A DNA stretch of 64,000 nucleotides from Psammoneis japonica. Taxonomy: Eukaryota. Made by a program: the position numbers and the translations under genes. Below the pieces are notes generated by a model. That model made no database searches and was not told the DNA's origin. It saw nothing but the letters and a program-made list of their open reading frames with translations. Of the stretch, positions 1,276 through 24,968 are shown piece by piece (within the stretch, counting starts at the first letter, position 1; each line of letters opens with the position of its first letter). The stretch covers positions 372,001-436,000 of the forward strand of contig QPGO01000024.1 in assembly GCA_008632985.1 (NCBI GenBank), written 5' to 3'.

Positions 1276-1313
1276 CACGCCATTCTAAATAAATGGTTTT
1301 ACAGATCCATTTG

Positions 1314-2922: not shown

Positions 2923-3666
2923 CTAAAGCTCCTTCTTCTCCTCTTCAGCTGGAACTTCCCTATTTCCAAGGAAGGACAAGAAGATGTTGTACCCGATCTG
3001 GATGGTGTTGATGTACAACAAACGTTGCGACGGGGGGACAAACGCAAAGTTTCTGTGTAACAAAAGTGTTGCGAGGTTAGATTGGTGCATGAGCAGACGC
3101 TTAACTGACACATCATGAAACGAACAATAGACCTTGATCTTACATCGTATGCGCCGGAACCTGTTTAACCAAAGTGTTGCAAGGTGAGATTGGTGCATGA
3201 GCAGACGCTTAACTTATACATTATGAAACGAAACAATAGAACTTGAACTTACCCACACTGACCACGACCCTAGAACAGCGGTCTTCAGATCGTTCTTGAT
3301 CTTGTTTTGGTAGTCCTCGAAGGACTTGCCCTCCGTGATGTTGAGATATCCGAAGAACATGAGACCAAAGATGGGGTTCCAGATGGTCTGATCAATAGCG
3401 ACCTTGGTGGCTACGGTCGCGGGCTTAGTTCCTGGTAGTTTCGAGTCCAAGAATCCATAAAAGTAATGTCCCGTGGTTCCGTGGAGCAGAAATCCAAATG
3501 AACCCATTCGAATTGTACGAGAAACGTCGTACGGCTTGTCGCCGCCTTCAATGAAACTCTGGGCCAAAATGTCACCAATGGTAAATCCAGTCAAGGACGT
3601 GAGAGCCTTTGTTAAGAGAGGTTGAGCCTCCAACAAGGCGTTGTACCGAGCCCAAACTCCTGCCAT
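2923..3666 (-). CDS. Mpv17/PMP22 family membrane protein; exons 3666-3253, 3160-3144 (17-bp micro-exon), 3052-2923
   Basis: PLLTKALTS..GDILAQ, YDVSRT, KVAIDQTIWNP; spliced product reads WSVW|VPAHTI|NFAFVPPSQRLLYIN, the family C-terminal consensus. Confidence 0.92.
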
Positions 3667-4566
3667 ATTTATCCCTGTTAAGGTTGAACCCGAAAAAAAA
3701 AGAGTTAGAAAAAGTTGGAACATTTATGTGCCGGATGAGTCCAATAAAAGCAGAGACAAAATGTGCATTGTACATAATTGTGTCAAGCACCAAAGAGAAA
3801 GAGCACAAGACACACTCAAAGTGACAATACGAGTTTGTTTCGCGTCCAATAGTAAGAGAATATTCCACCACAAACATCCCAACCACGGTACCCGGTCGAA
3901 GAAAATTCACGTGATCGCTTCGAACCTCATCACCAAGTGGCAGTGGCTCAAGAAGCGTCCAACAAGCAAACTCTTCTGTCGGGTGTGATAAAGATGGACT
4001 GAGGATCTCTGTCGCAAGTATGAACGCTTGATCGGCAAAATGGATTTCAAACAGGATCCCAGAATCAAAGTGGAAAGATATGCGGAGATAGCTCCTCTCG
4101 CTTTCCTCCACCCGTTTCGATGAAGCAATCAAGAGCGCTTTACATAGTTACTCTCTGTTATTGTCATTGTGGGACTTTCCGCCCATAATGACAAAACACA
4201 TAAATGATACGGACTCCAACAAACACGAAATCGTTCGTCAAACAACATGCACCTCAAAGCGCGTGCAACTCTGTCAAAGCTGTTTCCGCAGGAAGAAATT
4301 CCAAACGCCCACACCACAAAGAAACCTATGTACAAGAAATGAGCTGAGGGACTGTTTCAGCACCAACGCAAGTCGATTGTAACTTACAGAGAGTCTTCTT
4401 TTCCTTGTTGTGGGTTGACGCGAGTTGCGGTTGTTCAATTGTGGTGTGTTGTCGTCTGCTTGCTGTTTCTGCAAGAGAGTTTGGTTGGCCGACGGCGTAT
4501 TTTCGCGCGCCAAGTTGAAGTTCCTGAAGCTCTTGGCGCGCGTCACGGAATCTTCATTCCGGGTTA

Positions 4567-6717
4567 CCCTGGCTGAAGTGCATTGAGTCGCATTAGTCAA
4601 TTATGCTGGCGGCACTCTCTGTGCAGAGAGCAGATCAAGAGGGCGTGCCGTTTTTTTGGATTCACGACACTGACCGACCATCTGCTGGGAGACGTGTTCG
4701 GCATCCAGAGTGCTGAAAAAAGTCTGCTCTGGCGTGTTTGGGTTTTCATGATTGCAACAAAAATTTTGTGCATGGCTGGAGCGAACATCCAACGGGGCGC
4801 ATCTGTCCAGCGCACTCTCGCCAAGACTCGCCCCACTTGCTGCCCCAACATGTTGAAAGACAGGCACGCATGTTGTGTGCCTTCTGTGGTTGGAATGGAG
4901 TGTGGTGCCAACCACCAATTCCTCTTTTGAGGAAGCTGTTCTTTGACATTGAACCAACTCAATCTCTCCCCCCCGGCCTGTTCCAGCTCCAGCAGGTGAC
5001 CCGCTTTTCATCACGCAAGAGGCCAATTTTCTGCACAGTTTGGCACATTAAACTCCTTCAATTTTGATTGTTTCAAAAATCGAAAGGCAAGTGCACACCC
5101 AAAAATGCATGCAAATGTGCGCTTGCCCCTCGATTTGGCAAAAAATGGATTTTGAAAAAGTTCAATGCGCCAAATGCACAAATTGTCAAATGATGGGAAT
5201 CAAACCTGTGCCGATCACCTGGAGCTGGAACAGGCCCCCCTGCTGCTGGCATTGAGCACCTTTCCCATGCACACAGAAAAATCAGGAGGCATGTGGAGTC
5301 AGGAGGGGAGGGAGCAACAACCTTGGATGTGCACAAACTTGTTCGCTGCTCTGTCATGGGAGCAACTCCCACCCAGCAGCAGCAGAGGGGAGGCATGTTT
5401 GCAGACTGTCAAGAAGCTCCTTGCTCTGTGGGACAGGCAGCGGCAGCTTGGTGACTGGGGACAGAGGCACATGGCGAGTGCTGGGGGAGGGGAGCTTGCT
5501 CTGCCACCATGGGAGACAGGACCTGGATGGGGTGCAACACAGGTTGCCTGAATTTTCTGAAAGGGAGCAAGGAGCCTGTGCATGAGCCAATTTTGGGGTT
5601 CATGGACCCCACTCCTCTGATGAGCCAGCAGCTTGCTGTGGAGTCATCTCAAGCAACACCAAGTTTTAGAGAAAGGCCCAAAGGAGAGCAGTTTTCTTTT
5701 GGCACTTTTTGACTCCAAATCCAGAGGTTCACAATGTGGAAAATCCACAACAAGTCAGCACACTCACACAGAATGTTCCTTTGTGGGGACGGTTGCAGTT
5801 GTCTGTGTTTGCAGCCTGGCTGGCACCCAGCTTGGACCATGGCACAAGTTGAGCAGCCCATCTGACTCAAGAGCTGTCATCAACTCAAACACCAACAGCA
5901 GCACCAAGCAAGAGAAAGATCTGTCTGAGTTCTCAACAGCTGACAGCACTGGGTTCACAGGGCAAAACATGACAAAGTGTTTCTCAGCTTGGCACAGCAG
6001 CCTGGCAGGCCTTGCTGGAGACTTGGCCAACACTTTGCCAAGCCAGCACAACTTGGGTGGAAAAGGGGTGGGCCATCTGTTGTGTTTGCAGCAGACAGTC
6101 ATGGACTCTCATAGAATGCGCTGCTTGCCATGGCTCTTCCAGCAGCCAGCAGCTGACACAGCAAGATGGGGCCAACGCAAGCAGAGTGGGACCCATGTGT
6201 TCTTGAAGCTGAGCATGTGAAAGTGACTGTCCCATGTGCCTGAAGCACACTGGGGCAGTGACTTGAGATTGGCCACAGCTTCTCCAGAGTGCCAAGATTT
6301 TCTGTTTGCATGCCTTGGACAAAAACTTGCTTCTTCTTGTTCCTTGCACGATTGCTCTGTTGTTGCCCCAGAGACTCTGTCCGACATTGGCGTCAACTTC
6401 CAATGAGAGCTGAGCAACACTCATGATTAAGTCAGGGTGGGGAGGTTGTCAAAAAAAGCCTTGAGCCTTTGATGGAAGACTGAGAGAAAGGTGCACATCT
6501 GAGCTTCTGGCAGTGTGTGGCACCCGAACATCAAAACCAACTCTTGCTGGTCACTTCACTGGCCAACAATGTGTCCCAGTCAGAAGCAACTCCCATGGTG
6601 GGTGCTGGATGGTGCAAATTTCTCCCTTTTCTCTGCCCACCCACCCCCAAAAGAGAGCGGGCGGAGCCACTCAGGAAGCCACTCGAGCCACTTGGCACCA
6701 CATGCAAGATAACAGGG
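4567..6717. mobile_element. Decayed repeat/insertion, TpA- and CpG-depleted tract 1
   Basis: Only a handful of TA in 2.1 kb, strong TG/CA excess, overlapping Cys/His-rich ORFs in all frames; edges coincide with TA|CCCTG...CAGGG|TA; family not identifiable. Confidence 0.6.
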
Positions 6718-6876
6718 TACAGTGGACACGACTGCCACTGCGGCGCAAGACAGTCATCGGCGCGCTCTGACACGCCCCGCGCACGCCCATCGAGGAGCTG
6801 GAGGCAGGTGGGGCTATCGGCGGCGCTCGGAAGTTTCAGCAGAAAGTTACAAGTAGTAGAGTTTGTTGCACCTTCG

Positions 6877-8043
6877 ATGTCCCCTGCAATTGGATCCTTC
6901 CGAAATTCTATGTCTTCCAGTGACACGTTATCGCGTGAGCCTAAACTCAAGTCCTCCAGCGGTAAAATCGAGAGTGGTACGGCGCCGTGCCCCTGCTGTG
7001 CTTTCTACTTGTCCGATTCTTTGTTTCTACCACAAGTGAATCAGAGACGCGAGGAAGAAGTGGTGGCACAACCGCAGAGTCCTGACGGGTTGCTAAGCCC
7101 CCAGGAGGCGTTGCATCGAATCCTTTCGGATTGCAACCAAGAGGGGAAAGCAGACAAGATTCTTTTGGTTGACACGCACGGACATGCCCATTTAGAAAGA
7201 TCGAGCCATGGCGAGTACAACTGTGGAGCGTTCTCTACCGATCAGATTGATGTGTTTTCTCTCAGTTGCGCCGTTGAACAATCTGATTGGCCGCAGGCGA
7301 TAGAGTATGCTTCTAGATCAAGTAGCATCATCTTTGGCCTGGGAGTTCACCCGTGGTATCTGGCGGACTTATCAGACACGTGGCTCCAAGATTTGGAATG
7401 CCTTTTGAAGCAACATCCAAAGGCTATCGTTGGAGAAATTGGATTGTGCAAAATGGCGCGGTTTGTTCGACAGCACCCCGATGGAAAAGCAGCGGCTTTG
7501 TTACTACAACGAAATGTTTTTATGGATCAAATGCGACTTGCGGCTAAACTGAAACGGCCTGTGTCTGTCCACTGTGTCAAACAACACGGTGTTTTCATGT
7601 CAGTCTTGAAGGAGCTAGCTGCCGAGGCGAATGCAATGGAGCATCCTTCCCTGCACGATGTGTTTCCCCCAGCTATTGGTATGCATTCCTTCACAGGGAC
7701 TGCCCACCACGTTAAGGAAATATTGAAGTTCGAAGAGGATTGGTTGAAGTCAAGTGATGTCGACGACCCCAAACAATGTAAGAAGTTGTTCTATTTTGGC
7801 TTTTCCCACTCTGTAAATGTTGCAATGTGCACCTCCGATAAGTCCAAGCGACAAGGGATTGCAGCAATTCAAGCCGTGCCTTTGGATAGGCTCATGGTTG
7901 AATCAGATGTCCATTCGACAAAAGACGTCGCAGCTGGTACAGCTGGGGCTCTTGCTTTGATATCGTCTGCGCTTTCTTTACCGTTGTGCCAGGTTGCTCA
8001 AATTTCTGCTACGAACGGTTTAGAGTTCTTGCAGAGATGTTAG
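6877..8043 (+). CDS. TatD-family DNase (amidohydrolase TIM barrel)
   Basis: DTHGH, GLGVHPW, VGEIGL, PVSVHCV, MHSF, ESD motifs; start placed at first ATG outside the depleted tract (6910 also possible). Confidence 0.85.
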   Translation: MSPAIGSFRNSMSSSDTLSREPKLKSSSGKIESGTAPCPCCAFYLSDSLFLPQVNQRREEEVVAQPQSPDGLLSPQEALHRILSDCNQEGKADKILLVDTHGHAHLERSSHGEYNCGAFSTDQIDVFSLSCAVEQSDWPQAIEYASRSSSIIFGLGVHPWYLADLSDTWLQDLECLLKQHPKAIVGEIGLCKMARFVRQHPDGKAAALLLQRNVFMDQMRLAAKLKRPVSVHCVKQHGVFMSVLKELAAEANAMEHPSLHDVFPPAIGMHSFTGTAHHVKEILKFEEDWLKSSDVDDPKQCKKLFYFGFSHSVNVAMCTSDKSKRQGIAAIQAVPLDRLMVESDVHSTKDVAAGTAGALALISSALSLPLCQVAQISATNGLEFLQRC

Positions 8044-8608
8044 TACCAATTGCACTTGGAGAAGAAGTAGACGATGTCACGCTACATACCTGCGAGAGTT
8101 GGTGTTTTCAACTGCATTCTCAACTTGAGACCCATAGGGGCTCTTCCAAGGCAAAGAATTTCCTTTCGTGTCTGCGGAAAGCTGAAAGCTGAGTGTCGCA
8201 GGGCAAACCATACTAGGTACCTAGAGTGACTGCGGCGATTCCGGCGTTGCGACGATTCCCTACCTCCTATGGCAAAAGCTTAAAACTTAGTTCAAGTAAA
8301 AACCTAATGTATTACAGTCCATAATATGTACGGTACAACAGTGGTCTCTTGTGACATGAATTTAACATTGTCAATTCGTTCTATCTTCTGTACCGGTAGG
8401 GCCTACGGTACAGCTGTGGTGACACGGTACTAACGGGTCTGTCCGTGCATCGTCCATCATCGTGGAAGCATGAAGCATGTATGAAGCATTGAGCTATCTC
8501 ATCTCTATTGGAAGACTATTTTTGTCGCTGTTCTATGAGAGTTGCCCCGAAAGTACGTTCTGAAGACTGTACGAAAGTAAAAATCACTTCAAAGTTCAAC
8601 TCAGGAAC

Positions 8609-9682
8609 ATGGCGACGAAAGACGTGTGGATTTATCATGAGCGGCAAGACGCTGCATTGTGTGGACAACACGCGTTGAACAACCTGCTTCAAACGAATGC
8701 TTTCTCGCCCGACAACTTAGCAGACATTGCGCATGACTTAGACAGGATGGAGCTAGCATACATGGCTGACAATAACGAGGGGGGCATTCACTCAAGAGAA
8801 TACTTGGAGCGCGTTGCGGAAGGCTCGCACAACGTCGACGACGATGGCAACTTCTCTATTCAAGTGTTGCGAGCCGCACTAAAGAACGCGTATGGGCTAG
8901 AACTGCGCAACATTCGTGAGCAAGGTGTTTTGGATGAGACGCAAGTGACAGAAATTGAAGGATTCATATGCAACAAATCGTCTCATTGGTTTGCAATTCG
9001 ATCTGTTAATGGACGGTATTGGAACTTGAACTCGACAGCCACGCAACCCCAGGTTATTTCTCATTTTCGTCTTGCTGCAGAGATTGAAGCTCTACAGGAG
9101 GAAGGATATTCTGTCTTTTGTATCGTGAAGGGGTTGCCATTTCCCAACCGGAAGGAGGCGGAGGAACGACGTGGGTTTGTGTCTGATTTTTGGTGGCGAG
9201 AAGCGGACCTTCTCAGTGGAACAAGCAGTCGCGACACTGCTCTGAATAAGGACCCGTGGGAAAATGTTGGAGCAGGAAACCGTCTAGATGGAAAACCAAC
9301 AACGATTCATGCAAGTAGCATGTCGGTAGAAGACATGTCGGAGGAAGAAATGATGCAAATGGCATTGGAGGCGAGCTTGCAGCAAGAGCGCAAACCGGAA
9401 ATATCGGAAGCAATGATTGTGCCGGAAGAACCCCCACAGAACACAGAGGGCGTGGTAAAAATTCAATTTAGATTGCCAAATGGCGACAGGGTTATTCGGC
9501 GCTTCCTCAAAACAGACTCGGTGGGACTCGTTTATGCTTTTGTCAGGCACGCGTCAAATGAGCATCACAAGGAGCTGGAGCTTCGGTGTGGTTTCCCACC
9601 TAAAGACCTAAGAGATCTCAAGAAGGAGTCGATAGAAACCGCCAAGCTCTCTGGAGAGATGATAACATGCCGCTTCTGTTAG
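8609..9682 (+). CDS. ATXN3: Ataxin-3-like deubiquitinase: Josephin + UIM + C-terminal UBX
   Basis: IYHERQDAALCGQHALNNLLQ, GNFSIQVL, HWFAIR, WNLNS (Cys-His triad motifs); UIM EEEMMQMALEASL; UBX IQFRLPNG..RRF..GFPPK. Confidence 0.9.
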   Translation: MATKDVWIYHERQDAALCGQHALNNLLQTNAFSPDNLADIAHDLDRMELAYMADNNEGGIHSREYLERVAEGSHNVDDDGNFSIQVLRAALKNAYGLELRNIREQGVLDETQVTEIEGFICNKSSHWFAIRSVNGRYWNLNSTATQPQVISHFRLAAEIEALQEEGYSVFCIVKGLPFPNRKEAEERRGFVSDFWWREADLLSGTSSRDTALNKDPWENVGAGNRLDGKPTTIHASSMSVEDMSEEEMMQMALEASLQQERKPEISEAMIVPEEPPQNTEGVVKIQFRLPNGDRVIRRFLKTDSVGLVYAFVRHASNEHHKELELRCGFPPKDLRDLKKESIETAKLSGEMITCRFC

Positions 9683-10137
9683 AATTCCTTCCCAGCGCGC
9701 AAAGACTTGAACAGAGTTGTTGTGAAGCTGGCGTTTGTATTGTGACGGTGTAGCCTACTACAGCATTATTATTTGTAAAAAGTCTTCGCCCTCTTTCTTC
9801 TTGTAGTCAACTGGGCAGTTGGGATCACCCTATCATACTCTCTAGCTAGCTCCACCAGGGTAGGGCCTAGAGTAGAGAGGGAGTACCTTGTCTCCGCTCC
9901 AAGCAACTAACGAACCGACTGAATGAACGTTCGAATGAACGAACGAACGGAACACCAACGCCCTCTCTTGAGGACGACTGCCCACATCTGATCGATGTAC
10001 AAGTATAATCAATCATTTTAAATACGTATAGTTTATTATCTACCGATGCGTGAAGCGTCGTGAAAGGAACAAGCGAGACGATGAGTGCTGAGTGAACGGC
10101 CGGCGATGATCCAGTCTGTGGTGTATTGTCCTCCTGG

Positions 10138-13041
10138 ATGTCGCTCAAGATGTTGCCTCATTCGCGGCCTTCATTATCCTCAATATCCTCTTCCCGACGG
10201 AAAAGCAAGAAAAGGCAGGGTTTAGTTTGCGTGGCGGCAAGTCTAGCAGCTGCGATTATTCTCTTTGGATGGTCTTTCCTTCTGAGAAGCACAAGTCGTA
10301 GCGGTGAAAGTCGGGGAGGGGCTGGATATTTGAAGCATCCTAGACGTAGACCTTTCCACCATACCAATGAAAAGAAGGGCGCCCATCGCATCGCTATAAT
10401 AATCCCTTTTGCGGGAACTGGTGTGGAATCCCTCCCTCCATATTTGGACTTATTTATATCGGCTGCAAATGGGTCTGCGGCCTTGGTGGATTTTATAATT
10501 GTACACAACGGCGCTATGAAGGACTACACTGAACCCTCGGACAATTCGAATGTGAAATTCGTTGATCTAGGATCGTCTGAGAACATGGCAAAATATTTAC
10601 TCCGCGTCATGGACAAAAGCAGCGAGACCAGTAAAATACCTCTGAAAAACCTGTCCGCCATGCTGGCACAACAAATAAGTCTGTACCCCTATGTACTGGT
10701 AGAATACAAACCAGCGCTCGGTCACATTTTTGCACAATATATTCCGAGAGAGAAGTACACTCATTGGGGATACTCGGATTTAGATATCATCATGGGCGAT
10801 CTGCCAAGATGGATCACACCCGATGAGCTGAATGATTTCGATGTCGTAACTTATGGCTATGGAGACCAGGACCGTGTCTACTTGCGCGGCCAATTCACTT
10901 TCCACAAGAATAATGACAAGGTTAATCAACTGTGGAGGGATTGCGAATACCTTTCCAGGATGGATGAACGTTTTGAAGGACTCTTGTCAAAGACGAATAA
11001 GAAAGGCTTCTCGTTAGAGTCAGCGGAGGGGTGTTATTCTGCTGCAATCCTCAGTAGATCCGATGTTTCAGTGAAGTATGCTGTTAAGGCATTCAATGAC
11101 ATATCTAAGGAAGATACAACGAATACCCATGGGGTCTATCTGGCGTTTGGGTCCGACCACAGTTCCTCCGTCATTTTCAAATACCACAGAAGTGGCCAAC
11201 ATACAACTCCACTTTTACCCTATGACTGGTTTGAACAACCAAACGATCCCTACCACAGCGATTCGCTGTTGCAAATGGAAATAGGTACAAGGACACAGTT
11301 GGTACTTACATCTGCAGAAAAGCAAAGAGGCGACGCCAAGAGCAAGAAGTCAAGGAAATGCATGTACTGGGCACAGGCTAAGTATCAAGAAGATATCTGT
11401 ATGACTGGCAAAATGAAATCGACAGATACGGTCTTTTGGGTCAATGGTAAAATGTACAAGCAGCCTTACCAAAACATGCTGCCGCAACGGGAGCATCACC
11501 CAAACGTGGAAACGGCGCCCTTTTTTCACTTTCAGGAGTGGAAACGTTACTATAGATCGATGCAGCTTTCATCTTGTCATCGACACGGCATGGCTGTTGC
11601 GTGCATGTTGACGAAGGAAGGCAGCATCCCGTTGTTTCCAGCAAGGCCAACGCCTCTAAGAAGTGGTATGTCGGCATCCCCGCGAACTTATCGTTTTTAC
11701 CGATGGAAAGGAGGAGAAAACGTACGAGAGCAGCTTCCTACAAGACAGTACTGTTTACAGTCGGCCCCGAGAAAGTATCCCCCAAAGCCACCATCATCAG
11801 AGTGTAAATGGTCGATATCTTGGCGGGACGTTGAACTTCTGAGCAACGCTCCCGCATGGAATCACATCGACGAATCGAAGGACATCACGCTTACCTTGAC
11901 ACTGCAAATTTCTAGTTTGGAAGCTAGCTCTCACGATTCGCTCAACAATGTGCTAGATGTATTGGTAGCAAATGCTGTCCAATGGCGAAAAGGGAAAAAG
12001 CCCTGCGTTGTCGTCATTCATGTGTCGGGCGCCACAGACGAAATAGTTGAGTCGGTTCGAGGTCGATTCGAGGAAAGTGGCGACTTATGGATCATGTCCC
12101 TGGTTGGTGTTATTTTCAGCGATGGTGAGGAAATGAGCAGTCGCAAGTCTCTTCTCAACATGGCGCGTGAGGCTGTACCGACGCGATGGATGATCACTGG
12201 CATTGAGCTTGAACGAGGCTTAGTTTTGTCAAGAGAAGCTTACCAGTTCAGTCATGCAAGTACTTCAATGTTCGATGATACACAAGGGACGATAATGATG
12301 ATCCCACAGTTCTCGGTGTCGTCTGAAGAAGACAGCAAGACTAGCAGCGATCAAGATGCGGTTCTCGGATCGTCCTTGTCCGTTTCTACTCTTCTGCAAC
12401 AACATGAGAAGGGCGGTGTTCGTGGACCGGATGTACTGAATTGTGGGTTCTGTGAAGATGGCGAAGGCAATACTCATGCTTCGATCGATAAATTATACGA
12501 CCTCTGGCATGTCATGACGTCAGATCAAACAGAGGGTGTACTGTCAGGCGAGGAGGAAGCGGCTTCTGTTGCATTGCAAATCGAGGAGTTTCAACAAACC
12601 ATCACCAGCTTCCTTGCTGTGGATGATCTAAAGGAAGTTGGCTTGATGAACATATCACCCATTATATTACTCGACAATGTGGGTCCACATGTCGGTATGC
12701 GCACAGTGGAGATGGCGCGGGAGGTTGAAGAGTTTGGAGGCATGAAATGCTACAACGGCTTGTGGCTTGCACAGCTTGTCACGTTGGGATACACTGTCCA
12801 ACTTCTGCCAGGAGCCTTTGCGGCATCGTCAGTTTCGTCAAGGCGTGTCGCCTGTAGGCGTTTGTCATCCGATGGAGTAGCTGGTACCTCTCGTTGTGAT
12901 GGATGTTTCATGTTTGACGAGGGCCATTCGAATATTTTGAACGCAATCGCACGAGATGAACGCATTAGACCTGCCAAAGCAGCAGTCTTGTTGCACGCGA
13001 CAGGAGCGACTTCAGCATTGTCACAGGATTATTATAGTTAA
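10138..13041 (+). CDS. Type II membrane putative glycosyltransferase (DUF6625-like N-terminal domain, possible degenerate second GT domain)
   Basis: Basic N-tail plus one TM helix; IAIIIPF, EYKPALG, YTHWGYSDLDIIMGDL (DxD); 2.9-kb uninterrupted ORF. Confidence 0.65.
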   Translation: MSLKMLPHSRPSLSSISSSRRKSKKRQGLVCVAASLAAAIILFGWSFLLRSTSRSGESRGGAGYLKHPRRRPFHHTNEKKGAHRIAIIIPFAGTGVESLPPYLDLFISAANGSAALVDFIIVHNGAMKDYTEPSDNSNVKFVDLGSSENMAKYLLRVMDKSSETSKIPLKNLSAMLAQQISLYPYVLVEYKPALGHIFAQYIPREKYTHWGYSDLDIIMGDLPRWITPDELNDFDVVTYGYGDQDRVYLRGQFTFHKNNDKVNQLWRDCEYLSRMDERFEGLLSKTNKKGFSLESAEGCYSAAILSRSDVSVKYAVKAFNDISKEDTTNTHGVYLAFGSDHSSSVIFKYHRSGQHTTPLLPYDWFEQPNDPYHSDSLLQMEIGTRTQLVLTSAEKQRGDAKSKKSRKCMYWAQAKYQEDICMTGKMKSTDTVFWVNGKMYKQPYQNMLPQREHHPNVETAPFFHFQEWKRYYRSMQLSSCHRHGMAVACMLTKEGSIPLFPARPTPLRSGMSASPRTYRFYRWKGGENVREQLPTRQYCLQSAPRKYPPKPPSSECKWSISWRDVELLSNAPAWNHIDESKDITLTLTLQISSLEASSHDSLNNVLDVLVANAVQWRKGKKPCVVVIHVSGATDEIVESVRGRFEESGDLWIMSLVGVIFSDGEEMSSRKSLLNMAREAVPTRWMITGIELERGLVLSREAYQFSHASTSMFDDTQGTIMMIPQFSVSSEEDSKTSSDQDAVLGSSLSVSTLLQQHEKGGVRGPDVLNCGFCEDGEGNTHASIDKLYDLWHVMTSDQTEGVLSGEEEAASVALQIEEFQQTITSFLAVDDLKEVGLMNISPIILLDNVGPHVGMRTVEMAREVEEFGGMKCYNGLWLAQLVTLGYTVQLLPGAFAASSVSSRRVACRRLSSDGVAGTSRCDGCFMFDEGHSNILNAIARDERIRPAKAAVLLHATGATSALSQDYYS

Positions 13042-16000
13042 GGTATTCAATACGAAGCGTCATTGGAAGGTCGAGGGTCGACCAGAACTTATAATGTAAG
13101 TAACAAAGAGAATAGAAGATAGAGAAAATCAGTTTTAGATGAACATGGCTCCTGCTTACTCAAGACCCGAGCTATTAAAATGAACGATCGATCTATAATC
13201 TACAATCAAACAAGACCTTTCCTTGAAACCTGGCCGAGCTACCTAATGTGAATGGTCAATTCACGACGCGACTCCCGCAAGAATCATCGCCCCCTCCCGC
13301 ATTTCCCCCCGTTTCTTTCTTCAAGATTTATCGTGACCAAGCTCAAAAATTCGTCAACCAGCTAACACCGAGCTCTTTCAACAGCTCTTCGTGAGAAACC
13401 ACACTTAAACTGAGGTCTTTGTCAACAACTGGAGAATGCATGATGGAAGCTCCACGAGCTTGCAGCGGGGGGGGGGGGGGGGGGGCTTGTCAAGTGACTC
13501 CTCCTCTTCCTCCTCTTGATTCAGCACATCATGGACCCTGGAACTGAATGTTGCCTCCTCAATGAAATGCTTTTCTCCAAAGCCACTGTTGCAGCTCCAC
13601 CAGAAAATGGCCAGAGCATCACCAAACATCCAACTTGTCATTGAAATGAAGCTGTGGAAACATCGGCCAGCTCTAAACAGTCTTTGTCAAGAACAAGTGG
13701 GCTTCATCTTGTGTCTGAAAGAAGAGCAGCAAAGAACGGGACTCTGTCCACAAGAACAACAGGTGCAAAGTTGGGTGCTGCAAGGCATTTTCTTCCCACA
13801 AAAACATGGTGCCAACACAAGAGGTGGTCAAAGTCATGGTCTTGACCAAAGTCAGCATCGTTTGCTTCCCACCGTGTGCCACAAAAACACATGCCCTTGA
13901 CTCACTGCAACTGGAGTGCTGTTAAGAATTGACTCATTTGAGACACATGGACAAACATTCTGACATTGTTCTGCAGCCCACCCACCAGTCAAAAGACTTG
14001 CAAGTCCTTGCCTTTTGTTGACAACTGCCCCAAAGACATTTTTGATGAGAGGAAGAGCACATCATGGAAGAACAAGATTGCATCTTTCCATGGCAAGTGC
14101 TGATGAAGGTTCAGTGCATGATTGATGGCAATGTGAGTTTGTGGCAATGAGAGCAAGAAGACAAGAAATAAAAAGAAGGCACAAGAAATGTGGCCAAATG
14201 TGTGCAGTCCAGCACCTGCACTGTCTTGTGCACACAAAAAATGGTTTTGGGTCACTCTCAAATTCACAACATTTTCAGTGTTGTGTGTGGTGGAATGGCA
14301 TGAAATCAAAGGTGTTCATCATGCCTCATCATCCAACACGCACCACTCTGATTTTTGCATGGTGAGACCAAACCAGGTTTGCAAACCTTTGCATGTGAAT
14401 CATTGCACTTGTTGTGTCATCTCTGATGATGCCGAACAGCCCATGTCAAAACATCCATGTCCAACAATGAAAGAAAAAACTTTGTGCTTGTTGTCAAATG
14501 ATGCCAGCACAAGATTTTGTGAGCATTTGCTGCTGCAGTGTGAGCCCCACCCTGGTGTGTTGCCCACCTCACAAAGCAGTGCTGGAGCAGTGCCAACCCA
14601 TGTTGAGTCCAAACCAAGTGCTGCCTGCAGGGCCTGTGGCAATGGCGTGTTGACGGTGCTTCTTTGTCTGGGAAATGTTGTGGCTCTTGTTCAGAGTTCA
14701 TGTTTGCTTGACAAGAATGCTGTGTTCTTAACAAGTGCCAATTGATCATCATGTGCAAAGCATCTTTGACAATTGTTTTGTGACCTTCCAAGCAGGGTTC
14801 AATGCTTGGAACAAATGAGTCCAGCTCTTTGTTCAATCTTGACAAGATTGCAACCACAATGATTTTGAAAATGATTTGGCTCACATCTGCAATTAAAGTG
14901 ACCTTCCAAGCAGGAAACAACAATGAATGAAACTTGTGACTTGCAATTGTTTGTTCTTGACAAGGGTGCAATTGCGACTGCTTTCTAACACATTGCTCAT
15001 TTCTGACAATGACAACATTCATTTGTCTCATTGAGATGCTTGCACATTTGCTGTGTGCTGCTTGTGATGTGATTTGTGCCAGATGTGTTTTGATCATTTC
15101 TGTGGTGAACGTGTTTTTGCTCCCCGTTTCCTGCTCTTCCCTCCTTGGCTTTGTCCTGTCTCCTGCCAGTGCTCCCATGCCACAGCAACGGTGTGACATT
15201 TCACTCATTGTGCTGTCCCTTGCAGCTGCTCTTGCTCACCACAACCATGTTGTTTGTTCCATGTTGTGACCCTGTCTCTTTTGCTTGTTTTGTGTGCCAG
15301 ATTGCCAAAGCTTTGCCTGCAAAGAAGAGAAAAGAGCTTGCAAAAGATCAGAGCATTGCATGTGTTTTGTTTTGAATGGGTTTGGCTTGGTGCAAACTGT
15401 GTTTCTGCTCACCTTTGTGCGCGACCTTGTCTCTTTTGCATTTTGCACTGATTTGCTAAAGCATTGCCTGCAAAGAAGAGAAAAGAGCATGCAACAGATG
15501 GGAGCATTGTGTGTGTTTTGTTTTGAATGTGCTTGGTGTGCAATTGCTGTTTCTGCTCACCTTTGCATGGCCCCTTCAGGGTCATTTTTCCTTCTGGCTC
15601 CCCTCACATGTCAACATGTCTGAGTGGAAAGATTGGCAAAAGTGTCAGTTGTTTGCATTGTTGCCCAAGCTCTGTGCACTTGCTGACTCAGTCCTGCCTC
15701 TCTCTCACCTTGTGCTCTGCATTGTGCTCCTTTCCCCCTCTGCTCTTCTGTTGCCTTCCCTCACAGCTGCCATTGTCACAGTGTTGGATGAGTCTTGTGT
15801 TTTGTGTTTGTGTCTTGTGAGGAAATGATGATTTGTGCTTTTGCAGCAATGTTGAGCCCATCTGCCTGGTGATTCCTGTCAGCATTGCTTTTTGGTGCCA
15901 ATCGCATCAGATGCCCGTTTGCAGTTTTGGATGTGGGCCGCAATTTTTTTCAAATCTTCAACAACAGAGATGATTGGTGAACAGACCCCACAGTCAAATT

Positions 16001-16859
16001 CTCCACACACCCAAAAACACAGGAATCAACACTTCAGCTGTTTGAAAAAGACCCACTGGTTGTTGTGGTGGCCTCTAAAATGTGCTTGCATTTTCATGCA
16101 ATTTTTTGCCAATTTCTCCCTCCACCATGGCGGACCCGACGGCTGGCCCCACCAGGGAAGGACATTCATTCCAACAACCTTGGATGCCTCACAACATCAT
16201 TGGGGAAATGCAAGATGCATCAGAGTTGCTTGCAGTGACAACAGACATGCCTTTTTTGCCTGTTCAAGACATGCCACAAAATGCAGTGTCACAGTCTGCT
16301 GCCAAAGCATCATCTGTTCAGGCACATGACCCCCCTCCAAGTCTTCCTGCTGTGGACAGCTGCCAGTGGTCAAGAGAGCTCAAGTGTGGCTCAGCTTTGC
16401 CTCTTGCCCAGTCTGCCCTTTTTGGGTCTCATTCAAGGGGCACTCTTGGAACGCAACAAGAAAGATTGATTGTGCATTGGTCTTTGGGAAAGGACAGTGC
16501 AGTGTTGATGTTCAGCAGCAACTTTGGGTTTGTTGTTGTTTGGATTGTGTCACATCCCTCCTTTCCAACATTGATTTTTCCCACAAAAAAAAAAACAACA
16601 AAAAAGCTTTGTTTTGTGAGAATTGAGGCCAATTTGCAGCCCACAAGAGCCCAGCAGGAGGAGCCCTCAGAGAAACCAAGACTCTGCCACTGGAGCTGCT
16701 GCAGCACCGGCTGACAATCCCAACCCAGCAACTGCTGCCACTGCCACTGCCTCCATCAACAATGAAGCTGCTGCCCACCAGGCCAATGTGGACGGTGTCT
16801 CCTGCTCTCCAGCCACTCCACCCAAAATCTTGAATTTCTCCTCATGCATTGGCACAAAA

Positions 16860-18980
16860 TTCCCATGATTGTTGTTGCATCCCCTCCTGGCACCCAATGG
16901 AATCTTCCATGGCCTTGCAAGACAACTGATCACTTGTGCTGTCACACAGATGGCTCCCTGGTCTCTGTGCAGGTGTGGTGGCTGGGCCAAAGCCAGTCAT
17001 GTCAGAAAGAAAAGGACCACATTGACACAAAACAAGGCCTTTGCTCCCCAACCAAGGTTGTTGTCTCCCCTGGGACACAATGGAGTCACCCAAGGCCATC
17101 CAAAGATGACAACTGGGCACTTGCACTGTCACACAGAAGGCTCCCTTGTCTCTGCAGGTGGGGTGGCCAGGCCAAAGCAAGCAACAAATCACATCAGAAA
17201 GAAAAGGGGTTGCATCATTGGCCCAAGACAAGGCTTTTCCTTCCAAGCCATTGATGTTGTTGCCTCCTCAGGGACCCCATGGAGTCTCTTGTGCCCATCC
17301 CAAGACAGCTGAGTGCTTGCACTGCTGCGCGAAGATGGCTCCCTTGTTTTTCATGCAGGTTGGTTCTTGGCTGGGCCAACCCAGTTGTGTCAGAGAGACA
17401 AGGTGCCACATTGACACAAGACAAGGCCTTTGCTTCCCAGCCATTGTTGTTGTTGTTGTTGTTGTGTCCTCTGGGACCCAATGGAGTCATCAAAAGCCAT
17501 CCTAAGACAACTGAGCACTTGCGCTGTTGCACATGCAGTTTTCTCGTCTCTGCAGATGGGGTGGATGGGCCAAAGAACCCAGCTGTGTCAGAGAGACAAC
17601 GGCTGCATGGACAAAAGACAAGGCCTTTGTTGCTTCCCAGCCATTGTTGTTGTTGGCTCCCCTGGGATCCAATGGAGTCATCAAAAGCCATTCCAAGACA
17701 ACTGAGCACTCACACTGTTGCACAGATGGTTTTCTTGTCTCTGCAGGTGTGAGGCGGCTGCAACAAACCCAGTCATGTGAGAGGGACAAGGTGCTGCGTT
17801 CACAAGACAAGGTCTTTGCTTCCCAGCCATTGTCATTGTCGGCTCTTCTGGGACACGACAGAGTCACCAAAAGCCATGCAAGACAACTGAGCACTTGCGC
17901 CATTGCACAAATGTTTTTTTTGTCTCTGCAGGTGGGGTGGCTGTGCCAAACTTAGTTGCGTCAGAAAGACAAAGGGCTGTGTGGACACAAGACAAGGCCT
18001 TTGCTTCCCAACATTGTTGTTGTTGCATCTCTGGGATTCCATGGTGCCATCCCAAGACAACTGAGCACTTGCACTCTGTTGCACAGATGGTTTTTTGTCT
18101 CTGCAAGTGGGGTGGCTGGGTCAAACCCAGTCATGTCAGAGAGACAAGCTTCTGCATTGACACAAGACAAGGCCTTTGCTTCCCAACCATTGTTGTTGTT
18201 GCATCTCTGGGACCCAAAGGGAGTTCTCCAAGGCCATCCCAAGACAATGGAGCACTTGCACTGTCACACAGATGGTTCCCTTGTCTCTGCAGGTTGGCTG
18301 GCTGAGCCAAAGCCAGCCATGTCAGATGTCAGAGAGACAAGAAGGTGCTGCACTGACACAAGACAAGGCTTTTGCTTCCCAGCCATTGTTGTTGTTGCAT
18401 TTCTGGGACCCAATGGAGTCATTCAAGGCCATCTCAAGACAACTGAGTGCTTGCTCTGTCACACAGATGGTTCCCTTGTCTCTTGTCTCTGCAGGTTGGC
18501 TGGCTGAGCCAAAGCCAGTCATGTCAGAGAGACAAGAAGGTGCTGCGTTGACACAAGACAAGGTCTTTTGCTTCCCAGCCATTGTTGTTGTTGCATTTCT
18601 GGGACCCAACGGAGTTGTCCAAGGCCATCCCAAGACAACTGAGTGCTTGCACTGTCACACAGATGGCTTGGCTCCCTTTTTGTCTCTGCAGGTTGGCTGG
18701 CTGGGCCAAAGCCAGTCATGTCAGAGAGAGACAAGGTGCTGTGTTGACACAAGAAGAGGCCTTTGCTCCCCAACCATGGTTGTTGGCATGCCCCTGGCAA
18801 CCCACTGGACTCCTCCAATGCCACACCCATCCCAAGACAACTGCACACCTCCTTTGCTGTGTCTGTGGGCCTGATGCTTCCACACCTTGTGCAGGCAGCT
18901 GGGCATCTTCTTCTTGTTTGTGGAGGAATCACACAAGGGACTGCTGCTGCTGCTGCTGCCCAAGACAAGGCTTGTGGCTT
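16860..18980. repeat. Tandem array of ~175-197 bp units, about 11 copies
   Basis: Anchor acaagacaaggcctttgcttcccagccattgttgttg recurs near 17030, 17225, 17420, 17615, 17805, 17990, 18165, 18360, 18555, 18750 and partially 18960. Confidence 0.9.
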
Positions 18981-21261
18981 CCCAAATCAAAAATGCAAAG
19001 ATTCCGCCATTGGGCCAACCCACTCAACAATGCAGACTGAGTGCATTTGGGGTGCATGTCACACAGGCAGCAACTCAAACCAATGTGCATTGATGGTGAT
19101 GGCAATGATCTGGCTTGGCATTTGGCAAATGTTTGCTGGGACATGGGGACACAACCACCACATGCTCCATTTTAGTTTCTCAGGTGATGCTGGCTTGTGC
19201 ATCATGCACCGTCCACCTGGCAAGCCTGTTGCTTTCATTGGAGACACCAAGGCATGTGTCATCAAACTCACCACCAGAACAAGCCCCTTGGAACTGAGGA
19301 TGTGCAGCTGTGCAGACAAACTCTGGCCATTGCTTTCATTTGCAGTGATGGTGACAGGGAAGAAGACAAAACATTCTTCCCAGTCTCTGTCATTTGGCGA
19401 TGGCTTTCCAAGCAGCCATGCCATTGCTCACTTCATGAGATGCAAAGACCATGCCTTGGTGGTGAGTTTAAATCCAAGCAACTCTTCCTGCTGTTCCCGG
19501 TGCAGCACTGGGGGTGTGCTTGCCGAAGTTGCAATCAGGGCTCAGGTCAAAATGGAGAAAGAAGAGCACTGCAAATGCCTTTGAAAACATCTTTGGAGAG
19601 CACACTTCTTGTTTTTGTCATTGTCACACATCCAACCATGACACCAACAAAGTGAGTTGCAATGACAGGGGTGCGCCATTGTTGTTGGCAGTGCATGTCA
19701 GATTGGAGGATGTGACAACAAAGTGGATTGCAACAGGGGTGCACCATTGTTGTTGGTGGATGTTAGATTGGAGGATGAGTTGCACAGTGTCCAGCAGGAA
19801 AAAAGGACAGGTGCAGCAGCAGAGACACAGCAAAACAAAGGCAGAGAGCTGACAAATGGAAGGAAAAGGAAACAAGTGAAGCTGTTCTTGAGAGGTTTAA
19901 AATGAGGACAAAATGAGCCACACATGCAACTCAAACAAAGAGAGAGATCTCATGAACAAATGAAGCTGTTCTTGACAAGAGTTCAAAATGAGGACCAAAT
20001 GAGCCACACAGGTGACTCAACATGATGCTTTTGGGTCACGTCCATGCACAGCCATTTCTGTGATTTTTGACAAAAATGCTCACAACCCACAAAATCAATT
20101 CTTTTTTTTTCCAAGATGCAGACACAAGATGCAACTCAAGTTGACCATGGGGTCAGTTGTGGTGGCAACAATGTTTGACACCAAGTGCAAGAAACACCTG
20201 GAGAGTGTGTCAAAGCATCATTGTGATCACAAGGTGTGTTTCCTGAAGAAAGGCATCTTCACTCAATGCACTGAATTTCGTTTCTTCTGCATCTGACACT
20301 GCAGCAAATGTTTTGAAGGTCCAAAGTGGAGTGCACTCTGTGGACACCCATGACTTTGACAATGCATTTGACAAAGATGACAGAGAAAGGCATGCTCTCT
20401 TTCTTTGGTTTTGTTTTCCATGTCAAAAACAAAAGCAAGTGCAGAAATCCTTGCTTGTCACAAGGATCATCTGCAACAATCAAATTCACTCAATGTCTGT
20501 GTGTCAATCCATCCAAAAGCGTCAATCAATGGCTCAAATGCCACACCCTCTGTGACTTGATGAGACTTTCCTGGGCAGTTGTCAGGTGTCAAAAGTTTGT
20601 GCAAAAGTTCCCAAGGAGTCGCAAGCAGTTGGACATCAGATCCTGCAAACATGCCAGCTCTGGCCAAATTGATTGGGAGCATGGCTTGAACTGTTCATGT
20701 TGTCTGCAAAGAGGCATTTTCAAGTGGTCTCTGCTTGAAAGATTGGGTTCAAACTGCAAAAAATGCCACTGGTGACAATCAAATGACATGGCTGGCCAGA
20801 GCCCTTCTGTTGCACACCCACTTTCATTTTGTTTTGCACGCACTGAAGAATGTGCAGTTTGTTGACAATGTGGGTTGAATGCTGCACAATTGTCAGGAAG
20901 CATTTGCTGCACAAAAGGACATTGAATGTGAGCAATCACAAGAGTTGACAAGCACAATCAGTGCCATTTGACCACAAAAGGTGGGTTTGAGGACTTGGTG
21001 AGTGCACAGGCAGTTCTCTCTGCTGGGCTCCAAGCACTGGAGATCATTGCTGGGCCAGTGCTTGCAATGGCCAGCTGCAACTGGGAATCCTCTCCCATCT
21101 TGCAAATTGTCTGCTGTGACTGACCCACCCAACAAGAGAATCTGCAGTGCAGTCATTGGACCCCCTTCTGCTGCAATCTCCAAAAAGTGTGTGCATTGAA
21201 GGTCCAAGCACTGTGAGCATCATCCACATGCTGGAGAAGTCAAAAAAGCCAATGAGCATGA

Positions 21262-22180
21262 GACTTGTTCCAGACTTAGGTGCACTCACGCGCGAAAAAA
21301 TGACCCTTTTTGCATGAAACGCGCGGTCCACACTTGCGGTACCATTTTCGATAGTAAAAACATAACAATTTACAAATGTGTTGTTATGGGTACATACAGA
21401 ATTGTCTTGTGCGTGTACCCCATGTATTCGAAACTGTTGATGGACTCGGTTGTTAGTCGCTAAATTGTACCGTAAGTTGAGAGCTCGAATTTTCCGATGA
21501 GCGATTTATATATGCCTAAATGTAACAAGAAACATATAAAATAAAATTAATATATATAAATTAAGTCTTTGACATAGCATAATTAATATTTTGTTTATAT
21601 ACGCAAATACGAGTTACACTCAACGGATCGAATAAAGCATACGTTGATTAATAAGTTTAGGACGACGTGAGAAGAAGTGTAGCTCAGCCCACGCAATGGC
21701 GTCGACTTCGGACCATTTTTCACGGTTTAAAAGGCATAAACGATTGATACACTTGAATCAGTCGAATATATTGAGGAAATATACATGGTAATAGAAAAGA
21801 AATGGTCCTTAGAGGCAAATTGTGAGTGAATAGAGGCTCAATTGTTGTTGCTGACAGATTTAGCATTATTGTGCCGCGCTGCAGCCTTCAACAAGCATTT
21901 TCACTATTGTTGTTGATGACACAGACTATATCAAATACGGAGATCCTGGTCATGACATTCAATTTTCCATAAGGCTGAAAAAAGTGGGCCGTCATGGTCA
22001 CTGAAAAGCCATGGCCGGTTTGGCTGTTTGTTTGTTCGAGTTTATTCTGTTTATTTTACTTAGAAGCCATTGATATGATCAATTTTATTAAATATGTACG
22101 GTGTTCAATAAAGCATTTTAAAAAATTATTTTTTCTGCGAAAAGGGGCATGTGCGCGCCCACCTAAGTCTGGAACAAGTC
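21262..22180. mobile_element. Non-autonomous TIR DNA transposon (MITE-like), 919 bp
   Basis: Perfect 21-bp TIRs GACTTGTTCCAGACTTAGGTG (21262-21282 and 22160-22180), 4-bp direct repeat ATGA on both sides (21258-21261, 22181-22184), subterminal similarity, AT-rich interior with no transposase ORF. Confidence 0.9.
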
Positions 22181-24968
22181 ATGAATCAACTGACCTGCAC
22201 CACACATCCCTTCTCACCAACATTTACCTTGACTGCTGTTCCCCATAAAATCTGGTGTCTGGAGACCAGCCTTCCAGCATTGAAGTGGTGGCCTCAATTT
22301 TGTTTGCACTGCCAAGGCCTGTGATGATTGTCCACATCATGTGTGAGAGGGAAGCCACCCAAAAGAGTTCACACTTCATCCAAGAAATTCTGATGAACTT
22401 GCAAGCAAGGATCTCATGCTCAAAAGTGCAAGAAAGTGATCAATCCATCTGTCAAGCCAAAAGGACACGGTGCCTGCACCAAATGAAACAAGCAATGCCT
22501 GTGAGCATGTGCTGCATTGTGAAAAGTTCTGTGATGACAAATGACCTTTTCACACTTGCCTTGGTTGTTTCCCACATTGCCATCACTGAAGCTCTCCTGG
22601 CAGACCTGGAAAAGAGCACACAACATGTTGGTGCTTTAACCATGATCTCCTGACTGATTGATGCAATGACTTTGCCTGCAACACTCTCTCACACAACAAC
22701 CAAAGCAAAAATGCTGTGTCTCAAGAGTCTTGTCAACTGGCGCATGGTGCAAAGCTCACTCGAGTGCCTTTCAGAAACATGTTGCCAAGCTCACTTCTCT
22801 TTGCCATGACAGATTGAACCAGCAAAGTGCAGCACACAGAGAGGCTTGCACACAACAACCAAAGTAAAAACACTGTGTTTCCAGCTGATGCATGGTGTGA
22901 AGCTCACTTGAGTGCCTTTCAGAAACATGTCACCAAGCTCACTTCCTTTTGCCAAGACAGACTGAACCAGCAAACTGCAGCACACAGAGAAAACACACAT
23001 GTGAGCTGCACAGGCCACTTGAACAAAAGCAGAGTTCTGACGCATGGAAGGAAAAAACACATGAGACTGTTCTTGACAAGTGTTTAAATGTGGACAGAAT
23101 GAGCCACACAGATGGCTTAAAATGAAAAACAAAGATTCAATCATTTGTGACTTGATGACTGCCAAGAAACAAAATTGACAAAATTGCGTTAATTGAAGAC
23201 ATGTGGACATGATCAGCATGCATGTGAAAATTTTAATTGTCAACAAGTTGTGCTCTTGTCAAGCACAGAAACATGTCACAGATGTTGGCACCATCAGACG
23301 GGGTTGTTTTGAGGCTGCACAAACAAGAACAATGGCATTGCTCCTGGGTGTCAAAGACTGAGGAAAGATCTCCAAGCAGAGGTGTGGTCTCTGACATCTC
23401 CAGAAAGCCAGCATGTGGAGCTCTTTCCACACATGTCCTGCCCATGCAGAGAGGTTGCTGACATGCCCTCCGTTGCTGATCTGCTGTTTTCAAAATGGCA
23501 AATCACAAGGCAGTTGTTTGGCAGGGCAGGTGTGCAGCAGCACCCACCAGCCACCAGCCTTGCTGGCAGGTGCATCATCCCCCCAAGGGGGTGGGCTGGC
23601 AACACCTGAAGCATGTCCCTGGTGACAATTTTTTGGGCTTCCTGCACAGGTCTTGGACCACAAAGAAGCTGAGTGTGTCAGCATGTCTTGAGTGCTTCTT
23701 TGGGGCATGCGGGCTGACAATCATCTTTTCATCACCAGCACACCACAATGAAACATTTAGAAGAGAAGGAGGCTCATGTTGAGGCATGCCTCCCTGAGCT
23801 TGGCTCAACCACAAGACAGAGTGCAGGTGTGCAATGCTTGCAAGCACAGAACATGGCTTCAGCAGAACTTGCAGAAACACTTTGAGCTTGCACACCGCCA
23901 ACAAGTGTGGCTGGGCACCAACGACAAGGGTTTGCTCATGTGCCCACTGCTGGCACAGCGCTGGCAGCACAGCGGCTCTTTGGGGAGAGGGTTGCATTGG
24001 ACACAGGGGAAGGGGAAATTCAAGACATCTTCAAGCTTCTCAAAAAGATGAGGCAGAGGACCAGATTGACACAGGGCTGTCATTCTTGCAGGCCACAAAC
24101 ACAAATCTCCCCCTGGCTCAACAAAGGTGTCTCACAACTCACTCCCAAGAAAGCAGAAAATGTGTTGCAACAGAATGCCCAAAGTTGAGTCTGCAGCTGG
24201 CTGGCACAGGCAAATGACATCTCTCGCCAAGAGGGGGGGAGGGCAGGGAGAGAGCAGAGGAACAAGAAAGAGAAAACTTTCGGGCATGCTTGACTTCTCA
24301 CAATGCAGAGCCAACAATGGACAAACACAACTTTGTTGAGGCATGTTCACAGTTTGGGAAGCAGCATCATTGAAAGTGGCATCGGGCTCTTGGGGTGTGT
24401 CCCTTCCATGAGTTGCTGAGAGCGTGTGTGTTGCCAGTGTGGCATGGTGTCACAGGTCAACGACAACAAGGCACAGTCCATTTGAAGTTTGAAGTGCACA
24501 TCAGTTTCATCAAACCCGGTCAACAGCTCAAGGTCATTGAAAGGAGGAGAGTCCTCATTCTTAAGCTGAAGAGATTTTACCAATGGAATCAAGATCTCGT
24601 CATGGCGATGTTTTTATGCCCACACGGCGGGTCGTTGCTGCTGGGAGAGATGGCCCACTTTACGGCCGGCACCGGCCGGCCGGTAAATGCCACCCTGCGC
24701 GAGCGCGGTACGTACAGTACATCGTCCGTCTTACAGTGTACCATACTGTACGTCCGAGTCCGGATCGGATGGAGAGGCTTGCTGACTTTTACTGTATTAC
24801 AAAGGACACGAACAAAACACCACAAAAACCGAAAACAATAACATTCAACATCAACAACAGCGAAGCGTTGGTTGTGGTTTCATAGTATTTCGTTTGGGAG
24901 CCCAGGCCCAGGGAGCCTTCTTTCTAGTTATCTGGTGATCGATACCGATTTAAGGGTGATAGCATCTC

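Follow-up and report, generated by a model that had tools for sequence, protein, structure and literature searches.

Why should a eukaryotic genome hold stretches of several kilobases in which the dinucleotide TA has nearly vanished, next to genes where it is present at ordinary levels? The question is raised by 64,000 nucleotides of Psammoneis japonica DNA (GenBank assembly GCA_008632985.1, contig QPGO01000024.1, positions 372,001 to 436,000; this whole stretch is called the window, and positions below are its own), and above all by its tract at 13410-24560. The answer preferred here, at a probability of about 70%, is that the tracts are decayed repeats and inserted foreign DNA that two separate context-specific mutation processes have run near to completion. 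The first would change TpA to TpG or CpA, that is A to G where T precedes A, on either strand; it would work on DNA, on both strands alike, and in sharply bounded domains that end a few hundred bases before genes. The second would be ordinary decay of methylated CpG to TpG or CpA, with a slightly narrower footprint. An initial annotation of the window had proposed a process of the first kind, taken it to be undescribed and linked it to repetition; that interpretation is partly supported, as the process and its direction hold, while the claim of novelty is out of date and the trigger by repetition is not supported.

Composition was followed as the observed/expected ratio of dinucleotides in 500-base sliding windows over the 64 kb. 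Both TA and CG are nearly gone, and TG and CA almost doubled, in four blocks at ~4501-6500, 13501-21000, 22501-24500 and 52501-57000. In 13501-21000 and 22501-24500 the values are 0.00-0.10 for TA, 0.00-0.28 for CG, 1.54-2.34 for TG and 1.55-2.16 for CA, and in the 500-base windows that flank the tracts TA is mostly 0.4-0.9 and CG ~0.8-1.2. Pooling of the cores 5001-6650, 13470-21260, 22190-24500 and 52760-56580 (total 15,573 b) leaves 38 TA (0.04) and 107 CG (0.12) beside 1763 TG (1.84) and 1760 CA (1.78); the rest of the window (42,741 b) has 1804 TA (0.62) and 2395 CG (0.97). Both measures confirm the bounded TA-poor tracts, the excess of TG and CA and the normal TA of the flanks that the initial annotation had described. 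Its count of 2 TA in 16861-18840 is also correct, the expectation being 124 at even composition and 115 from the segment's own base content, and the same segment has 13 CG where 132 are expected. Runs without any TA or CG reach 587 b, and the TA borders are sharp, within ~50 b at 13410-13470 and at 24561. The description of 13410-24560 as nearly devoid of TA is right on either side of an element with terminal inverted repeats (TIR element) and wrong for the element itself, 21262-22180, where TA is normal at 0.85.

The features that the argument needs are given here one by one; X1 denotes a public DNA run whose contigs were placed on 4601-24600 and which may be the sample that the window was assembled from.

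4520-6720: tract 1; its core, 5001-6650, is without TA and CG, while along its left edge, 4520-5000, TA is low and CG normal.
13410-21261: left part of tract 2, non-coding, free of TA and CG, and repeated in the genome from ~14.6 kb inward.
13467-13485, + strand: 19 consecutive G that coincide exactly with the left border of tract 2; contigs of X1 break here, ending at 13485 and starting at 13467.
16869-18785, + strand: tandem array in tract 2, a 196-b unit in 10 copies that are 75% alike, 0 of them with TA.
21262-22180: the TIR element in tract 2, 919 b and non-autonomous, with perfect 21-nt inverted ends and ATGA on both flanks.
22181-24560: right part of tract 2; TA is absent to 24561, and CG rises gradually from ~24200.
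52480-57255: tract 3; its core, 52760-56580, is without TA and CG, and its edges, 52480-52760 and 56581-57200, are without TA only.
60870-64000: foreign-looking mosaic, TA-poor and CG-normal, which continues past the window end.
61907-63150, + strand: fragment of a TcB/TcC-type toxin-complex gene, an outgroup-polarised record of the change from TA to TG or CA.

What the missing dinucleotides became is indicated by the pyrimidine-purine (Y-R) steps, TA, CG, TG and CA, taken together. Their share of all dinucleotides is 23.6% in the cores and 24.2% outside them, and between the rest of the window and the cores TG+CA goes up by 8.3 points and TA+CG down by 8.9. Because the Y-R total is near-constant, TA and CG must have turned into TG and CA, and such a mass balance would be expected from transitions within Y-R steps.

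The joint disappearance of TA and CG in the four cores, with equal gain of TG and CA, is also what one machine could leave behind, such as a bifunctional ADAT2/3-like deaminase that acts on C and A and collapses all CG and TA to TG or CA. ADAT2 of amphioxus and of Trypanosoma is in fact cited as acting on both A and C in a preprint on the alga Bigelowiella natans (Mettrop et al., bioRxiv 10.64898/2026.01.13.699255), which is referred to throughout for the accessible part of its text. However, the two losses separate at the tract edges. In the edge zones 4520-5000, 52480-52760 and 56581-57200 (1,382 b together) TA is 0.13 and CG 0.84, and in the mosaic at 60870-64000 TA is 0.20 and CG 0.91; loss of TA without loss of CG in these places means that there were two processes. 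Against one machine there is further the polarised gene fragment dealt with below, with 20 changes at TA and 3 at CG, and with arginine kept at 10 of 13 columns. Methylation of CG in diatom transposons by DNMT5a, as given in the accessible part of PMC9998398, already accounts for the decay of CG, and one machine for both losses is unlikely. The edge zone of tract 3 is of some interest in itself, as 56511-57200 is TA-poor, CG-normal and coding-like, with a 127-aa frame at 56511-56891; it could be a purged exon or a dead gene, and the search of a large protein collection with that frame gave no match.

Loss of TA might also be sought in selection against it (as a transposon target or nuclease site), in Pol eta-type synthesis with errors at WA (W being A or T), or in GC-biased gene conversion, and the mildly low TA of the rest of the window (0.62) is in keeping with such pressures. 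In the pooled cores, though, AA and TT are raised (1.25) and AT is only slightly low (0.76), which speaks against WA mutagenesis of the Pol eta type as well as a general conversion of W to S (G or C); the WA hotspot, which had been put forward as one candidate mechanism, calls for AA and TT to be depleted and so fits poorly. The change of CG to TG or CA runs opposite to GC-biased conversion, and removal by selection of ~600 TA from 15 kb of non-coding DNA is implausible. Taken together these routes are very unlikely indeed. The simplest chemistry would be deamination of A preceded by T.

The direction of the change at TA can be read from the gene fragment at 61907-63150. It matches Pfam TcdB_toxin_midC (PF12255) at E 4.8e-14 with 53 bits against a cut-off of 25, and it also matches chains of known structure from TcdB1 and TcdB2-TccC3, with E values of 4e-4 to 8e-4. 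Homologues number 2265, with a top identity of 52%, and the ~415 residues of the fragment correspond to ~971-1400 of proteins ~2,500 long, with one frameshift near 62990. These matches mark it as the dead remnant of a bacterial-type TcB/TcC gene and not as a full-length open gene with N-terminal and shell-forming parts; the closest bacterial locus found by a scan of genome contigs, in a Bryobacterales metagenome-assembled genome, has 33% identity to it. When the frame 61907-63007 was aligned to 143 homologues, there were 11 columns with tyrosine in at least 60% of them, and at these the window has cysteine seven times, histidine twice, and phenylalanine and tyrosine once each. Tyrosine makes up 4.4% of the homologues and 0.8% of the window frame, and cysteine 0.4% and 4.1%, a tyrosine-poor and cysteine-rich make-up shared by 0 of the 150 homologues listed. 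Arginine is retained at 10 of its 13 conserved columns in 61907-63007 and other conserved residues are mostly kept too. Among 140 conserved columns there are 38 mismatches, 20 of which are explained by one change of TA to TG or CA, three by one change of CG to TG or CA and seven by another single change, with no single-step path for the remaining eight. From the replacement of tyrosine by cysteine or histidine and from this one-step count it follows that the direction in the fragment was from TA to TG or CA.

The DNA just upstream of the fragment is similarly out of place. The stretch 60870-61830 has 72% G+C beside a genome of 48% G+C, and contains an open frame with a start like that of a bacterial secreted protein and a frameshift near 61200; the frame has no Pfam match. 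On its other side, as assembled, it adjoins a MatE gene (59368-60867). These features give the end of the window the look of a patchwork of bacterial DNA that was acquired and is now dead.

Within the tracts the timing of the change is recorded by repeats. The 12 repeat pairs inside them (1999 aligned b, 316 mismatches) have 30 coupled differences in which TG in one copy faces CA in the other, and the other double transitions are far fewer (CC/TT 7, AT/GC 4, CT/TC 3, AC/GT 2, AA/GG 1, AG/GA 1 and TA/CG 0). Outside the tracts, the four repeat pairs compared (431 b) have 0 coupled doubles in every class. As TG facing CA is expected when copies independently resolve a shared TA or CG, the change came after duplication and in place. 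The copies of the tandem array add little, for their ratio of transitions to transversions, 152:87, is uninformative, and their column-wise mixing of TG and CA, 16 as against 1-9 for controls, is unnormalised and weak; the coupled differences are the better test. The tyrosine replacements, the swaps between copies and the edge zones all bear out the proposal of a process that is distinct from CpG decay and converts TpA to TpG or CpA in bounded DNA without genes.

How closely the tracts respect genes is evident from their borders. They occupy intergenic space and end a few hundred bases short of the adjoining genes, which are tightly spaced and intron-poor. Tract 2 begins at 13410, ~370 b past the end of a DUF6625 gene, and ends at 24560, ~400 b ahead of an RRM gene; tract 3 starts at 52480, ~225 b upstream of exportin-7. 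The exportin-7 frame also tells the host, since its best matches, at 72-83% identity, are in diatom transcriptomes and genomes, for example of Cylindrotheca, Nitzschia, Pseudo-nitzschia and Epithemia; by this similarity the host is a diatom.

The material of the tracts is harder to name. In X1 the depth is ~55-64, the single-copy level, over genes and the outer parts of tracts. The summed depth is 240-2450 in the left part of tract 2, compared with ~55-60 over genes, and over its whole interior, 14.6-23.3 kb, there are 1,539 contigs in all with summed depths of 240-4150; summed contig depth is, by the tool's own warning, not a copy number, and is taken only as a sign of repeated families. The interior of tract 2 is thus made of repeated families. 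The stretches at single-copy depth, 13.4-14.6, 23.3-24.5 and 5.3-6.6 kb, are no less purged than the repeated parts. Contigs of X1 join 19858 to 23045 and 19875 to 23066, omitting ~3.19 kb, so that there are other genomic copies without this segment, and the joins suggest nested insertions inside tract 2.

These depths and borders bear on whether anything acted at this locus, for the sequences could have been free of TA and CG when they arrived, or have become so before they multiplied. Such an inherited composition would agree with the multi-copy X1 contigs, in which no difference that restores TA is among those listed (40 of 108 differences between window and X1 are listed), and with the entire 196-b array being without TA. 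It does not agree with single-copy DNA having been purged to the same extent, with TG/CA swaps between copies, which are changes after duplication, or with a gene fragment that has gone from TA to TG or CA relative to its 143 homologues; and the loss of TA stops at gene borders, not at repeat borders. Even if composition had been inherited a purge somewhere would still be required, and we consider this explanation improbable.

The repeated interior is likewise what could be expected if transcripts had undergone ADAR-like A-to-I hyperediting that was then fixed by reverse transcription of a retroelement, and ADAR enzymes prefer a 5′ U. Yet editing of one strand would give mostly TG or mostly CA, and the cores have 1763 of one and 1760 of the other; a runs test of TG versus CA along the strand gave z from -0.4 to -1.3, without strand-wise runs. 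Equality of TG and CA together with the absence of strand runs argues for action on both DNA strands rather than on one RNA strand. The Pfam scans of the tracts found no reverse transcriptase remnant, and single-copy flanks and the bacterial-type gene fragment are affected as well, so that an origin in RNA is very unlikely.

Misreading of modified bases, or another fault of sequencing or assembly, could be suspected from the fact that differences between the window and X1 lie mostly inside the tracts. The X1 contigs on the tracts nonetheless have few differences and the same TA-free sequence. Those at normal depth (~58) reproduce it over kilobases with 0-8 differences each; the contig on 5172-9525 (4,359 b) has 8, all in its part of tract 1 and 0 in 2.8 kb of genes. 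In all, the window and the X1 contigs at single-copy depth differ 21 times in 5.6 kb of tract and once in 6.7 kb of genes. Among 20 listed tract differences, 13 are at Y-R steps, including two TG/CA swaps, three with TA in X1 and CA in the window, and six gains or losses of CG. These CG differences go both ways, with CG kept in X1 where the window has TG or CA and the reverse, and the replacement of tyrosine by cysteine or histidine is a heritable coding change. An artefact is hardly credible. Normal TA in reads at the tract loci was to have counted against the whole idea, and the X1 contigs are TA-free there, with the caveat that X1 could be the very sample from which the window stems. As to expression, no run of RNA was listed for this stretch, and another run, X2, has contigs only over the gene bodies at 6858-13169 and almost none on the tract; neither result is used as evidence.

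The tract DNA codes for nothing that is recognizable. The absence of TA means the absence of TAA and TAG stops, and the tracts for that reason hold many long open frames. The tracts have 169 stop-to-stop frames with a length of 70 aa or more; 146 of these were compared with Pfam (the other 23 being from 60870-64000 and excluded), and no credible family emerged. Three weak matches, to C1-set (22.1 bits, no single stretch passing), to DUF7919 and, below its cut-off, to Mannosyl_trans2, are read as chance. A six-frame read-through scan of 18790-21276, with stops taken as X, found 0 families, and a homologue search of a large protein collection with the tract frame 18748-19581 found no match. There is no DNA similarity between the tracts within the window, and when tract sequence was compared with the rest of the window as purines and pyrimidines, so as to detect relatives that had escaped the purge, the sole match was the tandem array. 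As to whether the targets are of other than host origin, the bacterial-type fragment and the stretch of 72% G+C are among the DNA hit, and the tract interior is repeated by depth; the scans gave no transposon or viral domain, and the repeated TIR element was spared.

The TIR element, at 37% G+C, has TA 0.85 and CG 1.31 and so is unpurged, and its summed X1 depth is ~4150 compared with ~58 for single-copy DNA. The process may be episodic; its target may be certain DNA and not a whole region; or the element may have inserted very recently. The RIP-like trigger by repetition that had been suggested is not supported, as a repeated element is spared and parts of tracts at single-copy depth are purged.

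Several points weigh against decayed repeats and foreign DNA purged in place by two processes. The direction of change is proven for 61907-63150 and not for the tract 13410-24560, where TG/CA swaps cannot separate a TA ancestor from a CG one. As no listed difference in the multi-copy X1 contigs restores TA, the other copies seem to be TA-free, and some of the purging may have come before they spread. X1 is in any case weak independent support, as it may come from the same sample. The designation of the tracts as repeats and foreign DNA depends on contig depth, which gives no copy number, and on one bacterial-type fragment, and the Pfam scans of the tracts found no transposon or viral protein domain and no remnant of a reverse transcriptase. 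The untouched TIR element, repeated as it is, implies that the process is inactive now, is not regional or is not aimed at every repeat. Lastly, given the absence of strand-wise runs of TG or CA, there is no trace here of a processive single-strand enzyme.

The initial annotation knew of no described system of this kind, but the preprint on B. natans, of 2026, reports hypermutation of TpA to TpG or CpA. In that alga two integrated viral regions have a mutation rate ~1000x that of the remaining genome. Of 231 new mutations in these inserts, 230 are A to G or T to C, and all 230 are on TpA; the raised mutation rate is active in only some lines (bioRxiv 10.64898/2026.01.13.699255). Its genome has 124 clusters that are poor in TpA, rich in CpA+TpG and enriched in transposon, viral and bacterial domains, and the candidate enzyme put forward is an ADAT2 homologue, with DNA editing by amphioxus BjADAT2 being cited (same preprint). 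The likeness extends to the change itself, TpA to TpG on one strand and to CpA on the other, to its confinement to bounded regions and to TpA-poor, CpA+TpG-rich clusters, and the cores here are well past the preprint's cut-offs of 0.43 and 1.52. The sequences hit there are of viral, transposon or bacterial origin, mostly without annotation, which might hold for the tracts here as well. There are also differences. The host here is a diatom, a stramenopile, whereas B. natans is a chlorarachniophyte, a rhizarian; depletion here is near total (0.04), compared with a Rho of 0.45 for the giant-virus insert; the depletion coincides here with loss of CpG, a term with 0 occurrences in the accessible text of the preprint; and a mutation rate was measured there, while here the only hint of a raised rate is the contrast between window and X1, with 21 differences over 5.6 kb of tract and a single one over 6.7 kb of genes. 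The comparison suggests that the footprint may be a diatom case of a process already described in one organism, B. natans. Full-text literature searches, which do not cover subscription journals, gave no account of diatoms losing TpA or hypermutating it, and 'TpA' does not occur in the accessible part of the mutation-accumulation paper on Phaeodactylum tricornutum (PMC6604790). In 63 environmental diatom loci (453,995 b; 500-b windows, step 250) there are 0 windows with TA below 0.2.

Comparison with better known systems serves mainly to set them apart. Fungal RIP, of Neurospora and others, is likewise a defensive hypermutation by transitions, ruinous to repeated or foreign DNA, with a strong dinucleotide footprint and possible leakage into flanks. 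It changes C to T mainly at CpA and so creates TpA, whereas here TpA is nearly absent and CpA in excess; nor is its dependence on duplication seen where stretches at single-copy depth are hit and a repeated TIR element is spared. Decay of methylated CpG explains the loss of CG (0.12 in the cores) and part of the gain in TG and CA, and diatoms do methylate transposon CG via DNMT5a, according to the accessible part of PMC9998398, but it cannot remove TA, and the loss of TA extends over DNA with CG intact. The APOBEC and ADAR enzymes that restrict animal viruses and retroelements are deaminases and leave context-specific clusters of transitions; they act on single-stranded DNA or RNA intermediates with a strand bias, whereas here both strands are alike.

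What might carry out the first process? It would be of the same kind as the targeted hypermutation in the B. natans mutation-accumulation lines, and its agent could be an adenine deaminase of ADAT2/TadA type that works on DNA and is brought to silenced or foreign chromatin. Conversion of A to I, which is read as G, by ADAT2/ADAT3 and TadA, in their natural U-A context, would fit the footprint and makes these enzymes candidates only. ADAT2 and TadA enzymes target A34 of tRNA, which is next after the invariant U33, and a T-A context is thus natural for them. A candidate gene for adenine deamination is not present within the 64-kb window. The role would be one of genome defence by erasure of tyrosine codons, TAA and TAG stops and TA-rich signals.

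A few other features of the window deserve mention. Its extreme in the other direction from the tracts is an intergenic low-complexity block at 2440-2790, composed of CT, AG and TA with many CTAG and TAC units, where TA is 1.48 and AT 0.36. Low TA can have an ordinary reason, as at 46008-47096 (+ strand), where it is 0.19 in a frame rich in alanine, serine and glycine that includes repeats of FG type (SFSFGFAAP) and a tandem repeat of 125 b; this is probably a nucleoporin-like gene and is not a purged tract. The complementary strand at 40075-43368 has a single 1097-aa frame with SET, Agenet, spermine/spermidine synthase and AdoMet decarboxylase domains, a fusion that is presumably akin to those for polyamine synthesis in diatoms and would likewise fit a diatom host. 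The window gave no match to Rfam families and no tRNA. Synteny in the 63 environmental diatom loci was limited to matches with exportin-7 exons, and the tracts are in consequence not demonstrable as insertions.

Practical consequences come with the tracts, since TA-free DNA gives long false open frames that may mislead gene callers. On the biological side, targeted mutation of A:T in a single dinucleotide context is so far known from one 2026 preprint on one alga, in which the enzyme is a candidate. The same footprint in a diatom, and there saturated, would if true mean that the process is no quirk of one lineage. It is a tentative possibility, somewhat short of an even prospect, that diatoms and chlorarachniophytes share an old and dedicated defence, in which a DNA adenine deaminase, directed to silenced or newly arrived DNA, extinguishes TpA on both strands independently of cytosine methylation; this would be a second, mirror-image counterpart of RIP, widespread in marine protists, and could filter genes acquired horizontally from bacteria and viruses. 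CRISPR knockout is reported for P. tricornutum in the accessible part of PMC9998398, and the question would move, if the finding is true, to a group with CRISPR-amenable species and known methylation biology, where enzyme and targeting would be directly testable. It would then also be relevant to the control by diatoms of transposons and of bacterial DNA gained through horizontal transfer, as loss of TA removes tyrosine codons and TA-rich signals.

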